64,000 bases of DNA, taken from NCBI GenBank assembly GCA_964106645.2, contig OZ067050.1; one strand, given 5' to 3'. Made by a program: the position numbers and the translations under genes. The notes below the pieces were generated by a model. That model was not told the origin of the DNA. It did not search any database and was given only the letters and a program-made list of their open reading frames with translations. This document shows, in pieces, positions 31,750 to 40,200 of the stretch (its first letter is position 1; each line of letters begins with the position of its first letter). The stretch comes from Podarcis pityusensis. Its lineage: Eukaryota.

Positions 31750-31966
31750 CAGTGGTACCTCGGTTACAGACACTTCAGGTTACAGACTCCGCTAACCCAG
31801 AAATAGTATCTTGGGTTAAGAACTTTGCTTCAGGATGAAAAAAGAAATCGCACAGCAGCGGCAGCGGGAGGCCCCATTAGCTAAAGTGGTACCTCAGCTT
31901 AAGAACCGTTTCAGGTTAAGAATGGACCTCTGGAACGAATTAAGTTCTTAACCTGAAGTACCACTG
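31750..31966. mobile_element. Tc1/mariner-type MITE
   Basis: CAGTGGTACCTC...GTACCACTG; same family as 15253. Confidence 0.85.
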
Positions 31967-32165
31967 TATTTTTCTTTTCCTTTTTAAAAAAGGGCTGAGG
32001 TTTTATTTATATTTTTTAATACCGCTCCACCCACAACCCTCGATTACATCAAAAATAAAGCCCAGTACGACCGCCCTGATACAAATCGGTGATTTGACTC
32101 CTCCCTCTTTCTTCACAGTTTGGCTTCTACCTGACGCGCCCATTCTGATTCTGGATGCGGCTTTG

Positions 32166-32687
32166 ATGTGGCTCCATCGCAGTGGTCCACCCCCTGCTAC
32201 GTTGTCAACGCCGGCCCCCTCGACGGGAGCCCAGATGCCTCCTTCCTCTGTGGCCTCCCCGCTCAGTGAGTGTGGCAGCTGCCTGCTGATCATGACAGGC
32301 ATTGCCTTCATTGCCGGCCTTTTCATCGTGATCTCGGCCATCCTCTGCGACCGGGTCTTCCGTGGGTCCCTGCCCTCAGAAAGAAGGGGGCTGCCGTCTG
32401 TCTGGAGGCAAGGCGGGACGCTGTGGATCGAGCCTTCCAGGAGCCGCAGGGAGCCAGATCTCCTATCTAGGCCATCAGAAACGGTGCCCCTTTGGATCCA
32501 GCGCTCAAATGACTGGTTTCTGGAGCAAGGGAGCTGCGATTCCCCCGAAGATACCCAGATGGAGACGCAGAGCCCAAGCAGCTCGGCCCCTTTCTGGGAT
32601 GACGGCGAACCCACCTGGCGGATACAGCCACGCGTCACCCTGCAGGACCTACAGAGCTTTTTCCAGCACAGCGGTCGGGGTACCTAG
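32166..32687 (+). CDS. C16orf54: Transmembrane protein C16orf54 homologue, 173 aa (alternative ATG at 32235)
   Basis: Single coding exon. CGSCLLIM-TM-DRVFR...VWRQGGTLWIEP and C-terminal W.IQPRVTLQDLQSFF match recalled human C16orf54 (CGPCIPIM...VWRPGGELWIEP...LQPRVTLEQISAFW). Synteny with ZG16 and SPN. AATAAA at 33473. Confidence 0.92.
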   Translation: MWLHRSGPPPATLSTPAPSTGAQMPPSSVASPLSECGSCLLIMTGIAFIAGLFIVISAILCDRVFRGSLPSERRGLPSVWRQGGTLWIEPSRSRREPDLLSRPSETVPLWIQRSNDWFLEQGSCDSPEDTQMETQSPSSSAPFWDDGEPTWRIQPRVTLQDLQSFFQHSGRGT

Positions 32688-34360: not shown

Positions 34361-35240
34361 CTGTGCATTAGGTTCTCCTTAATCCTAGGAAATCAGTATG
34401 TGTTGAAAGGTTCTAGACTAGAGTCAGCCTAATTTCCTGGGGAGAATGAGCCATTTGCACATCAAAGGAGTGGGGCCTTGGCGGGTGTTAGAAAAGGCAG
34501 AGGCAATGAAAGCTTGGGAGGAGCATCGTGATGCAAGCTGACAGAAGTTGGGGGTCAGAAGGACATGACTTTTTGTCGCTGGGCTGCAAGGCTGCATCTG
34601 CGAGAAGAACAGAAACCTCTTGGAAAATGATGCTCTGAGCCGCCCCATCTGGACTCTGGTTGCGTAGATGTGTATATAAACCATGCACCATAAAGACACC
34701 ACAGTCTCTGCTGTGCCTCATTGTTCAAAAAGAAACACAGCGCTTACAACCCCTGGAATCTCTCACCACTTGGGGATAGAGTGTGTGTGTAACATTATTG
34801 TGATGGGACGATGAGCTGCTTGTGTGTAAAATCCTAGTCCCTCAGAGTTTGGTCAAGTTTGCAAACCTCTGTCTGTAACGGAGCCCCTTAAACATGGCTC
34901 CGTCAGTCGCTGGCAGATTCCGACAGTGGTTGCTTTCGGAATCGCTTCCAACATAAAAGCTCCTTAACGGAAACACGTCTTCTGGACTCTCTGCGTGACA
35001 GTTTCCGGCGAGGAGTGGGTGTCCCTACAGGAGGTCCTGAAACCTCCCCACTGTTTTCGCTGGAAGTGTCTCTGAGCCATCCCTCCAGCTCCCTTTCACT
35101 TCCCTTCCTTCCGATGGCAGTTCCCTGACATCCACCTCCCCTCCAGGGCCCCCTTCATCCCCTCTCGCCCCCTCCTCTACGGGCGGTGAGGAGGCAAAAC
35201 CCCGGAATGAACTTCCTTCATCTTCCGATGTCCCGAACAC

Positions 35241-36695
35241 TTATCTCCACCTGTTGCGGTTCCTGGTCTCGAAGTACTCCTCCTCCTCAGAGTCCATCTC
35301 CCCTTCCCCTTCCGATTCCGAGAATCCTTCCAACTCCTCCTCCTCATCGGTGGTCCCAAAGTATTCCCTCCGGAACCTCTCCACAGGCTGAGGTTTCCTT
35401 GGGAACCTTTGATGGAACGTTTCTATCAATACCTCGTCATTGATATCTTCTGCCATTACCCAAGTGTTTTCTGACTCCGGTTCTCCTTCCCACGCTACCA
35501 AATACTCCACCTGATCCCCCTTCCACCTGGCGTCGAGGATTTCTGCCACATGGCTGCTGCATTCCCTTTCTTCTATGACCGGTCCCCGAGTGGCCATCCC
35601 TTCTCGTCCCCCCTCATACGGTGACAGTAACGACCTGTGAAATACTGGGTGCAGTTTCATGTGGTTGGGTAACCGGAGCCTGAAAGCCACTGGGTTGACC
35701 TGTTGAATGACCTCAAAGGGACCCAATCTCCTGGGTCTTAATTTCTTACAACCTCCTTTGAACGGCAACCCTTGGGTTGACAGCCACACCCTATCTCCCA
35801 CCCTTATGGTTTCACCTTCCCTTCGGTTCTTGTCTGCCTGCCTCTTGTATTCTTCCTTCGCCCTTTCTAAGTTGAGTTGGAGCTGACGATGGATTGCTTC
35901 CATTTCTTCTACAAAATGCTCGGCTGCCAGGACACCCCATCTCTCCCCTTCTCCCCCTGGGAAAGCCCTGGGATGACACCCATAATTAGCCAAGAAGGGG
36001 CTCATCCCTGTGGACACATTCTCGGCATTGTTGTAGGCAAATTCCGCCAGCGCCAACTTTTCTACCCAGTCATTCTCTCTGTCATTGACATAACACCTCA
36101 GGTATTGCTGGAGGACCCCGTTTGCTCTTTCCGCCTGCCCGTTGGTTTCAGGGTGCCGGGCAGTCGAAAAGTTGACCTCCACCTGCAGTAAGCTCATGAG
36201 CTTCCTCCAGAACCTGGAAGTAAATTGTTTTCCTCGGTCTGAGACCACCCTCAATGGCACCCCGTGCAACCTAAAAATGTGTTCTACAAATAACTTCGCT
36301 GTCTCTTCCGCCGTGACTGCATGCGAGCAGGCTACAAAGTGGCACATCTTTGTTAGTAGGTCTACCACCACCATGATGGCTGTTTTCCCCTTGGACTTCG
36401 GCAGATCAGTCATAAAATCTATCGACACTGCCTCCCAAGGTCGTTCTGGGGTTGGTAAGGGTTCTAATAGCCCCGCCGGTGCCTGCCTCTCCCCTTTGGC
36501 TCGCTGGCATTGCTCACACCCTCTTACATACTCCCGTACATCTTCCCTCACCTTAGGCCACCAAAATTCCCTGGTGACCAACCACATGGTTTTGTGTTGT
36601 CCAAAATGCCCCGCCGTGGGGCTGTCGTGCAACTGCTTGAGTACCCTCCCCCTTAAGTCTCCTTCAGGGATATACAGTGCCCCTTTGTAATACAA
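35241..36695 (-). CDS. Gypsy integrase with chromodomain (pol remnant)
   Basis: HHCC zinc finger (HDSPTAGH...CEQC), DDE core (SIDF, SDRG, QAER), GPF module, chromodomain VAEILDARWKGDQVEYLVAWEGEPESENTW. No natural start of its own. Confidence 0.85.
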   Translation of the reverse strand: MYYKGALYIPEGDLRGRVLKQLHDSPTAGHFGQHKTMWLVTREFWWPKVREDVREYVRGCEQCQRAKGERQAPAGLLEPLPTPERPWEAVSIDFMTDLPKSKGKTAIMVVVDLLTKMCHFVACSHAVTAEETAKLFVEHIFRLHGVPLRVVSDRGKQFTSRFWRKLMSLLQVEVNFSTARHPETNGQAERANGVLQQYLRCYVNDRENDWVEKLALAEFAYNNAENVSTGMSPFLANYGCHPRAFPGGEGERWGVLAAEHFVEEMEAIHRQLQLNLERAKEEYKRQADKNRREGETIRVGDRVWLSTQGLPFKGGCKKLRPRRLGPFEVIQQVNPVAFRLRLPNHMKLHPVFHRSLLSPYEGGREGMATRGPVIEERECSSHVAEILDARWKGDQVEYLVAWEGEPESENTWVMAEDINDEVLIETFHQRFPRKPQPVERFRREYFGTTDEEEELEGFSESEGEGEMDSEEEEYFETRNRNRWR

Positions 36696-36784
36696 AGCTC
36701 CATTTCTTTCCTCGAAACCCCCTGGTTCCTCTCCCTCACCCCTAAGACCTCTGAGCTTATTCTGGGCGTATTCATCATTCTCTG

Positions 36785-37207
36785 TTTAATATCGCTGGAA
36801 AACATCAGATCCATGGCGCGAAAGAACTTCATCGTGTCCTTTAGGACGTCACTATTCGCTGCCATCAGGGGTCTAACCCAGTCTCTCGCCCCCTTTTCAA
36901 GATGCCCAATCACGAAAGCCACTCGTGATTCCTCGTCAGGGAATTCATCAAACTGCAGATTGAGGGCATATTGCATCTCTGTCCGAAAGCCATGATAGTC
37001 TTTGGGTTCCCCCCCAAACTTCTGCACCAATCCTGGTACCTTTCTGACGAGCTGGGTGTCTTTCCCCTTTTTGTCTGCATCCTGAGCCCTCCTCTCCTCA
37101 AGCCTCGCCGTCTGCAGCGCTAGCTGGACCTCCAACACCCGGTACCTTTCTTCCAGGCTTGGACCCGCTCCAGCTCCTGCTTCTCCGGTTCCGGCTGGGT
37201 TGCTCAT
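36785..37207 (-). CDS. Truncated Gypsy gag
   Basis: ATG 46 nt inside the 5' LTR; KFGGEPKDYHGF...FPDEESRVAFVIGHLEKGARDW resembles the Ty3/Gypsy capsid N-terminal domain; ends at the deletion junction. Confidence 0.8.
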
Positions 37208-40200
37208 GATGCCTTCTCCTGCACAAGCTGCTCACGGAGACTGTCGGAATGCTGTGATGGGACGATGAGCTGCTTGTGTGTAAAATCCTAGTCCCTCAGA
37301 GTTTGGTCAAGTTTGCAAACCTCTGTCTGTAACGGAGCCCCTTAAACATGGCTCCGTCAGTCGCTGGCAGATTCCGACAGTGGTTGCTTTCGGAATCGCT
37401 TCCAACATAAAAGCTCCTTAACGGAAACACGTCTTCTGGACTCTCTGCGTGACAGTTTCCGGCGAGGAGTGGGTGTCCCTACAGGAGGTCCTGAAACCTC
37501 CCCACTGTTTTCGCTGGAAGTGTCTCTGAGCCATCCCTCCAGCTCCCTTTCACTTCCCTTCCTTCCGATGGCAGTTCCCTGACAATTATGTCCAGCTTTT
37601 AATTTACCTTGAGGCCAGGAGTGCCAGCCTGGCCCCATGAGTGGCCAGGGCCGTGGGTGCCATGCAGCGTGCATGGCCCTGGCACTGAAGTTTGTGGGTG
37701 CCCAGCCCCTTCATGGGGAGTTTTGTGGGTGCTCAAGGCCCCAGGGAGTTGGCAGCTATGCGGGAGGCTTTTCATATGATGTTTTAGGACTTTTTAAATA
37801 TCGGAGCTGTATTTGATTTGGAAGTTTTATTTGTTGCACTGCTCAGACTTTTAAATACCACGGTTAAAAGAGACGATGGTTTTAACATGGTTCGCTGCTC
37901 TGAACTGTGCTTGTTCTCAAACAAATATGCCAGCAGATGCAAGTTCCAGTTAATACCTGTACTCATGACTGATAACCACACACACTTAGCATCTTTCTTT
38001 TTTCCTTCTGCTGTAACCTGTCAGGAAGATAGAAGTAGGTGTAAAGCATAGATGATGCTCACTCCAGTGAGGAAGGGAGCTGTTTCTGGCAGGGGAATTG
38101 AAAGTGACTAGTCTGTGGGGGAAGGCCCTTCACTCTACGCAGGCATTATGACTTTACCTCAGATGTGAAACTGACAAGGGCCTTCTGCACACTTGGCCTC
38201 CTGACTAGGGCCCAGTTAGATGCCTCCATCTTAGTTTTTGTTTTTTAAGTAAAGAAGCTGTGGGAAGCTGCCTGTTTGAACTGACTAATGGGAGGTTAGG
38301 GCTGCTTTGCATCTGGATTTTTCTGATCCAAAGCCATCCTTGAGTGAGTGGATTACAGGAGGGATTTAAAATAAATGATAATTGTGTGCTTCACAAATGA
38401 GGCAGTCCACATGGACTAAAATTATGTAGCTGCACCACTGCTCTCACCCCCTCTGACTCTCACTGGCAAAATGGGCCCACTGGCTCAAATCATGACGCCA
38501 GATCAGTGAGGATTGCCTTATGACCTGAAAATATGCCCCCTGGGGCACCTTGACTTCCACACGCACACCAACCCCCAACAGAGCAAGGGGTTGTATGTGA
38601 ATAAGAAGCACGTTCTGGCCACATTCACACTGAAAGCACTATGACGCCACTTTAAACAGTCATCATGGCTTCTTCCCCCGAAGCATCTTGGGAGCTGTAG
38701 TTTGTTCAGGATGCTGCTGAGAGTTGTTAGGAGAGCTCTGTTTCCCTCACAGGACTAAAATCCCTAGAGCGATTTAACAGATGATCCCTTTCACAGGGAA
38801 CTCTGGGGACTGTAACTGGGAGGGGAATGGGGGTCTCTTAACAACACTTAGCAGCCTTATCAAACTACAGCTCCCAGGATTCTCTGGGAGAAGCCATGAC
38901 AGTTTAAAGTGGTACCACAGAAATTTCAATGTCTCATGCGAATGTGGCCTCTATATGTTCTGGAAGCAGCCGCACCGAGCACTGGCCCTCAAGATATTTG
39001 GCTGGGCTAGAGGGCCTGGTCTTACCCTAGATTACCTGCATCTTTTCTCAACTATCTACTTCTTGCTTATATTAAGAAGCAGGCTTTTCAGATATAAACG
39101 CGCCATCACATCCTTCGAAACACACTAGATCCAGATTATCTCGCAAAACCTTTGCAGTTCCCATGCCCAGCCTTTCCTGTGGTTGGTCCTGTGGTGTCTT
39201 CTATGTTTATCTCAGCTCCTGCTGTACTCAAGCCATTCTCAGGTTGTCAAAGACCTCGCCTCCTCATGTTTCTTTTGTTTTTCTTGCCCCACAACATTTA
39301 AGGACAGGCTAACATGCCAACATTGAGCAGGAGAAAATCTTCCCTTCACACTTTCCCCATACCTGGATAAATTTCTGCTAAATCTCACCATTTTTTAGAC
39401 GGTTGCTAATGTCACAAGAAAACAGGGACAATCCCACCAATAATCCCTGCCCACACTGCTTACTCTTTCAAAGAAGTTTTTCAGAGTTTTTCAAGAAGTT
39501 TTAACTGGTTTAGATGCTTGGTTTTTAAAACTGATTTTAGAATAAGGAATTGCATTCTGTTATTGAATAAGTTTTGCATTTTAAAACTCATTTGAATCAC
39601 AGCACCAGTCACAAGTACAGGTAAAACGGGGTTTGGACCTGCTGCCCTCGATGCTAATACTATTTATTTAGGAACGTGCACCATTTTGTTCTAGAAAAAG
39701 ATACTACTACTACCTCGAATAATAATGTATGTGTCATATCAATTTTCTGGGCAACCAGTGGCTTTGGCGGGTGGGGGAAAATAGCTATTGAACAATGTAA
39801 GTTGCCAACATTTGGGGGGCCAGTGGGCATATTTGGAATTTTGAGAAAGTCTCCTTGGGCGCCAGACACACAATGGCTGCTGGGTTAGCATATCGCCAAA
39901 TGACTTTGGTGATGGGCCCATGAAATGCTCCTGCAACAGTCAGCCCATCAATGCAAGGAAAGGCACCTACACTAGCTACTGCCAGATTCACTCAGAGAGA
40001 AAAACTCTATGAAGGTTAGTCTAGTGCCATCATACACAACACACAACTGTTTATTGTTGTTTAGTCATGTCCGACTCTTCATGACCCCATGGACCAGAGC
40101 ATACAAAGATATTAGCCACAACCACAGTGATGGGGGCAGAGAGAGAGCAGGTGACAAAGATAAGGCCCAAGGCATTTTGCTGCCTGAAGCAGAGCCCAAG

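Follow-up and report, generated by a model that had tools for sequence, protein, structure and literature searches.

Tandem motifs resembling host TND-interacting motifs behind the integrase chromodomain of a lizard chromovirus clade: a candidate LEDGF/HRP2 tether

The stretch of DNA analysed here, referred to as the window, comprises 64,000 nucleotides of contig OZ067050.1 of Podarcis pityusensis (assembly GCA_964106645.2) and contains at positions 34799-37584, on the minus strand, a young, internally deleted copy (2,786 bp) of a Tf1/sushi-type chromovirus with the following features:

34794-34798 and 37585-37589, both sides of the element: target-site duplication ATTAT, 5 bp
34799..35130, minus strand: 3' LTR, 332 bp, TG...CA
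35131..35144, minus strand: polypurine tract, read through in siblings by a Pol frame that continues into the 3' LTR
35196..35252, minus strand: motif 2, W-R-X-V-F (X being the break), a 9-residue acidic/Ser linker and FRGF
35241..35243, minus strand: stop codon between the motifs, in this copy only
35322..35381, minus strand: motif 1, a predicted helix up to F, an 8-residue acidic/Thr linker and LEGF
35406..35555, minus strand: chromodomain (Pfam Chromo, P0001 residues 413-460, E 2e-10)
35550..36785, minus strand: integrase with H2C2 zinc finger, rve core and Tf2-type SH3 (Pfam, 514-residue frame)
36788..37231, minus strand: gag remnant (DUF4939, slightly below the Pfam cut-off)
37240..37250, minus strand: primer-binding stretch, 11 nt, perfect complement of 37371-37381 within the LTR
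37253..37584, minus strand: 5' LTR, 332 bp, TG...CA, of the same sequence as the 3' LTR; sibling LTRs are 76 bp longer

The internal deletion, at about 36787, removed protease, reverse transcriptase and RNase H (PR-RT-RH) from the window copy and fused the gag remnant out of frame to the integrase; the LTRs, the duplication, the polypurine tract and the terminal chromodomain that characterize chromoviruses are all in place, and the complete PR-RT-RH-IN order was read in the relative P0003. We read the 11-nt LTR-complementary primer site as the self-priming type of the Tf1/sushi group, in which the site is complementary to the transcript start, here a presumed one. The 76-bp deletion relative to siblings is common to both LTRs of the window copy, and since the LTRs are identical, carry the same deletion and are flanked by an intact duplication, the element was probably already shortened when it was copied. 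Exact matches to 33 bases of motif 2 number 1,162 across the genome, which sets the minimum size of the family; among protein matches, the 150 with the best scores, a set selected for identity, are all 100% identical to the sibling L002 and lie mostly in 1,374-residue frames. Two pairs of tandem copies 5,083 bp apart (G000:C1:1792440-1797555 and 88630123-88635238) fit two elements with one common LTR, and this spacing together with the sibling LTR of 408 bp suggests a full-length element of about 5.5 kb. Older and decayed members of these families are in large excess on contig C19, which would fit a W-like or heterochromatic chromosome. In the clade represented by P0002-P0005, P0126 and P0139 the Pol frame ends inside the 3' LTR with a conserved K-x-LLCWKR (window 37357-37450, minus strand), and since this lies about 30 bases ahead of the presumed transcript start, it may be kept as promoter element or as peptide motif. 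Elsewhere in the window, 2.1 kb from the 3' end of the element, positions 31944-32687 (plus strand) hold one open frame with a hydrophobic segment and Pfam DUF4689 (E 7e-19). The window copy itself is a dead, deleted passenger, and any function of the motifs belongs to the family.

Behind the Chromo domain the minus-strand frame reads EYFGTTDEEEELEGF at 35366-35322 (motif 1), followed by an acidic spacer and, past the stop at 35243-35241, by VFGTSEDEGSSFRGF at 35240-35196 (motif 2). The stop is private to the window copy, as 29 of the 29 other loci fetched are open at that place; motif 2 is consequently untranslated here and in frame in siblings. The first-pass annotation had proposed two LEDGF/TND-like motifs of the form FG-acidic linker-FxGF at this site, and the presence of two such motifs behind the integrase chromodomain was borne out by the frame translation, the Pfam assignment and the chance counts given below. 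Its description of their form held in part: the acidic linker and FxGF are there in motif 2, motif 1 ends in LxGF, and the supposed FG start did not stand, because the G after the first F varies between relatives (G, A, E, K, D or T). The anchor of the motif is therefore F with the preceding hydrophobic residue, which is conserved in both motifs, rather than "FG". The chance pattern, defined after the motif had been seen, was F, 7-11 residues with at least 70% D/E/S/T, then [FL]xGF; in a six-frame control translation of 1,199,760 residues it matched at two places, each within another copy of the same family, and shuffling of the 84-residue tail yielded a single motif in 441 of 200,000 trials and two motifs in none. 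The stretch EEEEYFET, which lies between the motifs and resembles the FFAT consensus, was rejected as an FFAT-like motif because it is not kept in relatives. Serine or threonine followed by acids is present in the linkers of both motifs. For the TND-interacting motif class, binding to the TND is raised by CK2 phosphorylation.

The pattern of hydrophobic-F, 8-10 acidic or S/T residues and F(L)-x-G-F is kept in at least five lineages whose integrase cores are 60-95% identical, with variation at x, in the spacer and at the G that follows the first F. Linkers of 8 and 9 residues in the window correspond to 8-9 in 23 instances of element motifs. In Podarcis muralis (P0003-P0005) and in a second subfamily of this genome both motifs are preserved despite gains and losses of spacer residues, and these spacer indels retain the reading frame. 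Across 10 copies the anchor codons swap synonymous forms with residues unchanged. Contigs from four other sequencing runs (organisms B, D, E and F) also span the tail, and the 40 variant places listed of 97 spare the anchor codons, a coverage too incomplete to count as evidence. In a third family, with 30 loci that share 46-53% identity across chromodomain and tail, FxGF of motif 1 persists in 26/30 loci; of the four exceptions, two have a stop at x and two an altered last F. FxGF of motif 2 persists in 27/30, the remaining three being truncated or frameshifted; x, counted by eye like these numbers, takes seven residues (A, G, E, S, P, T or L). A fourth family possesses a single motif, IF-E[EK]TDSEEEE-FIGF, in 12/12 loci. 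FxGF occurs in both motifs of the L094 and P0126 lineages, and in the window family motif 1 has LxGF or MxGF and motif 2 has FxGF. Two motifs are not required, since P0139 is devoid of motif 1 and the family of P0163 has one. The Phe and Gly positions, whose lack of conservation had been named beforehand as what would refute the idea, persist as F and F/L-x-G-F across diverged lineages under silent codon changes, so that this refutation did not come about. As a separate observation, the lineage of P0203, P0303-P0305 and L205 carries WLF-TPTLSAST-FxGF, where the Ser/Thr linker is free of acids and is followed in several members by xSDEE; the central cage W is missing from this lineage too, and judging by its sequence, this is a candidate phosphorylation-switched motif.

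In a search with chromodomain plus tail among 1.84 billion representatives, the pattern appeared in 6 of the best 150 of 816 matches; among the matches listed, four of these six carriers are from Podarcis muralis and the named relatives are lacertid only. In 123 chromovirus proteins (7 chosen and 116 new from the best 120 of 326 listed), [FLMY]xGF within 260 residues past the chromodomain was found in 10. It is absent from the other entries listed, including those named as Anolis, Crotalus and Sphenodon and the amphibians Bombina and Leptobrachium, a comparison for which the first-pass annotation had asked; most motif-free proteins have short tails and so had little room for it. In a quick tree of integrase cores, which left out P0003, P0126, P0301, P0302 and P0310, the motif bearers (8 of 118 rows) lie on one side of a branch with SH-aLRT 99, and in a second such tree 13 of 32 rows do so with SH-aLRT 100, this measure and not bootstrap being the support in both. 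Judged from these trees and searches, the motif marks one clade, not vertebrate chromoviruses generally. The same proteins differ in the chromodomain. The aromatic cage of group I, i.e., methyl-lysine reading, chromodomains is given in an excerpt of PMC3350952 as Y24, W45 and Y48; the corresponding positions of the window family read S, W and E, leaving a single aromatic residue and placing it outside group I. All three cage aromatics are retained in 0/10 motif-bearing proteins versus 101/113 motif-free ones, and the first and third are both missing in 8/10 bearers, P0005 among the bearers keeping the first tyrosine; P0306 and P0394 have no full cage, yet no motif. Gain of the motif and loss of the cage represent one phylogenetic event and therefore do not provide independent support. 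The sister chromoviruses P0307 and P0308 (Anolis) and P0309 (Podarcis) have an intact cage and a C-terminal RRSAR[IL], which we take to recall the nucleosome-binding core of HMGN proteins, and this tail is possibly a second kind of chromatin-tether mimic.

The TND-interacting motif is described as a helix with an acidic linker 8-16 residues long and, optionally, FxGF, the latter being essential for known partners of LEDGF and HRP2; many TND partners are catalogued, and lentiviral integrases are the sole case of viral mimicry named there (PMC9987994). Excerpts of two preprints give the consensus of the LEDGF motif as (E/D)-x-E-x-F-x-G-F, to which P0126, P0127, P0130 and P0163 conform exactly, as does the solved JPO2 M1 peptide; each window motif is one residue off, motif 1 with L for the first F and motif 2 with S for E. 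JPO2 motifs in LEDGF-bound structures are EVADIF-NAPSDDEE-FVGF and LRRIF-IEDTDSETED-FAGF (6EMO, 5YI9), and they correspond to the two motifs of CDCA7L of this genome, LADIF-NTPSDDED-FLGF and LREIF-REDTESENEA-FEGF, besides which its CDCA7 has IAKIF-YEDSDDES-FCGF. These host motifs are closely approached by LREVF-ETTDEEEE-FEGF, which is motif 1 in the third family. A profile of 23 element motifs, applied to 53,000 segments (2.08 million residues) among which the CDCA7L/CDCA7 regions were included deliberately, ranked CDCA7L and CDCA7 motifs first and second of the non-element matches (E about 2, about 10 bits), with the remaining host motif in fifteenth place. Searching the PDB by phmmer with element tails retrieved no chain of a LEDGF ligand at E up to 10. 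The match with the solved JPO2 motifs (6EMO, 5YI9) strengthens the likeness to LEDGF/TND-interacting motifs suggested at first reading.

The window tail has an acidic linker of the required kind (8-16 residues rich in D/E/S/T/G). AlphaFold returned a confident chromodomain and, with modest confidence, a helix at model residues 73-80 immediately before the F of motif 1, and no helix for motif 2. From model residue 81 onward pLDDT is about 47-52, a low confidence serving as a proxy for disorder, and on this model the motifs would lie in a disordered region. Foldseek with the model gave chromodomain matches only, and ESM Atlas only chromodomain look-alikes under 0.9. On the host side, the genome has PSIP1 and an HDGFL2-like gene with the binding domain conserved; a piece of a PSIP1 exon matches Podarcis muralis proteins without a difference, and comparison by eye of the LEDGF binding domain between Podarcis and human gave about 8 differences in 85 residues (about 90% identity). 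A predicted complex of the Podarcis LEDGF IBD (P0007 288-375) with motif 2 (P0002 500-540) scored 0.12 against the mark of 0.34 in a run with no alignment and with controls unfolded, and so speaks neither for nor against binding. The tail, as a sequence, fits the broad definition of the TND-interacting motif, and its binding is predicted.

Insertion sites were compared by weak proxies, as the assembly is unannotated for genes and selection, which removes genic insertions, filters the copies that survive. The 96 sites on C1 (100 listed minus 4 tandem neighbours) fit a uniform spread (KS p 0.78). The 10-kb flanks of 60 insertions had GC of 0.426 versus 0.432 for 60 evenly spaced controls, with the same CpG ratio and repeat share, and mean absolute strand skew, compared for 58 versus 58 after L157, L179, L216 and L217 had been dropped, was 0.051 versus 0.052 (p 0.82); the power of this last proxy is low because host gene stretches show merely weak sense-strand skew. 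These proxies, weak as they are, do not favour a strong HIV-like insertion bias, which is not apparent. The proposal that integration is tethered to transcribed chromatin is left unsupported, as neither spread nor flanks nor strand skew, all weak proxies, gave any bias.

Taken together, the reading that we on balance favour is that the motifs mimic host TND-interacting motifs and bind the IBD of LEDGF/p75 or HRP2, tethering the integration complex to chromatin. Its parts are of unequal firmness: given the conserved sequence pattern, binding to the LEDGF/HRP2 domain is probable, use of the motifs as a chromatin tether during integration is somewhat more plausible than its opposite, and a tether-driven preference for gene bodies is the least firm of the three, to be held with reserve. 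Mechanistically, the helix and F of a motif would occupy one pocket of the LEDGF/HRP2 domain, the acidic, likely phosphorylated linker would lie over a basic patch, and FxGF would occupy a second pocket; avidity would arise from each subunit of the integrase multimer carrying two motifs. Such a tether would stand in for a chromodomain deprived of its full aromatic cage; the least certain step is whether it would direct insertion to H3K36me3 gene bodies or merely confer better access to chromatin. More tentatively, the clade may have swapped readers, so that a heterochromatin-reading chromodomain decayed and tandem motifs docking to host LEDGF/HRP2 evolved, putting a retrotransposon on the tether of HIV. 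Under this swap, motif mimicry would conceivably serve instead of a folded pocket during a burst, still under way, that exceeds a thousand copies.

Among the alternatives, an unlikely one but the most serious is that the motifs do bind LEDGF/HRP2 or another TND protein (IWS1, TFIIS, Elongin A, PNUTS or MED26) for a job other than choice of site. The job might, with the same modest probability, be retention on mitotic chromatin, stability of the integrase or recruitment of elongation factors at a new insertion. The conservation of the motifs and their match to JPO2 fit this equally, the insertion proxies are flat, and at least 8 more exon matches of TND type occur in the host genome, with many TND partners known (PMC9987994); nevertheless, the C-terminus of integrase behind a decayed reader is the place of the targeting module in MLV (PMC8149907) and chromoviruses (PMC3350952), as passages of these papers describe it, and FxGF indicates LEDGF/HRP2 specifically (PMC9987994). 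Rather improbable is that an acidic, aromatic-studded tail serves some other partner and resembles LEDGF ligands by compositional convergence; H2A-H2B in a chaperone-like manner, the element's own basic domains or its Gag are conceivable at the same low level. The tail is indeed low-complexity and very acidic, sequence search did not retrieve PDB ligands of LEDGF, and the P0203/P0303-5 lineage retains FxGF though its linker has no acid. Charge, however, needs none of the order F, 8-10 residues, F-x-G-F (x free, G fixed) that is kept twice and across lineages, and in the monomer model the tail does not pack against the chromodomain with confidence. That the motifs reflect chance, or constraint at the level of DNA or RNA near the polypurine tract, from which the purine-rich tail ends about 50 bases away, is very improbable and already largely refuted by the shuffles, none of 200,000 having two motifs, by silent changes of anchor codons with the residues fixed and by survival of the frame through spacer indels.

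For the reading in which the motifs tether integration via LEDGF/HRP2, the interest lies in the route. LEDGF tethering is known for lentiviruses by means of a folded integrase surface, and mimicry of the unstructured motif by a mobile element, or such a motif in any retrotransposon, did not come to light in a search of mostly openly accessible literature; the proteome-wide lists of the primary motif papers could bear on this. Should the peptides bind, the element would have reached the host factor of lentiviruses independently and would exemplify the natural replacement of a targeting module, and natural variants of the motif would enlarge the small set of known TND ligands. The hypothesis is directly testable, given short peptides, a domain about 90% identical to human and over 1,100 insertion sites.

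Among known systems, Tf1/sushi vertebrate chromoviruses share with the element the LTRs, the 5-bp duplication, the PR-RT-RH-IN-chromo order and the 11-nt self-complementary primer site, whereas the clade is distinguished by the long, motif-bearing tail past the chromodomain and by the Pol frame entering the 3' LTR. Loss of the first and third cage residues likewise occurs in group II chromodomains of plant chromoviruses, which the excerpted 2012 text reports solely from plants (PMC3350952); it is likely independent here, because the clade sits among vertebrate elements with intact cages. Host motifs of JPO2/CDCA7L (6EMO, 5YI9), KMT2A/MLL1 (2MSR), IWS1 and POGZ (6EMP) have the same hydrophobic-F, 8-10 residue acidic S/T linker and FxGF, and JPO2, like the window element, has two motifs in series; those of the element differ in being encoded by the integrase of a mobile element, in that their binding is predicted and, for motif 1 of the window, in L for the first F. 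With lentiviral integrase the element is predicted to share the host domain of LEDGF/p75 (PMC9987994). HIV integrase, according to part of PMC10854676, docks via a structurally prearranged site and cellular partners via an unstructured motif, so that the element, unlike HIV, would take the cellular, unstructured route, and its insertion proxies gave no gene-body bias. A comparable design is that of MLV, where, as excerpted from PMC8149907, the C-terminal integrase tail likewise offers a short conserved motif in a flexible tail to a host chromatin reader, the ET domain of BET proteins, although the motif, the host domain and the chromatin mark all differ and MLV is a retrovirus, the element being a Gypsy retrotransposon. 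By analogy, we infer that the element may work like the MLV tail-BET system aimed at the host factor of HIV.
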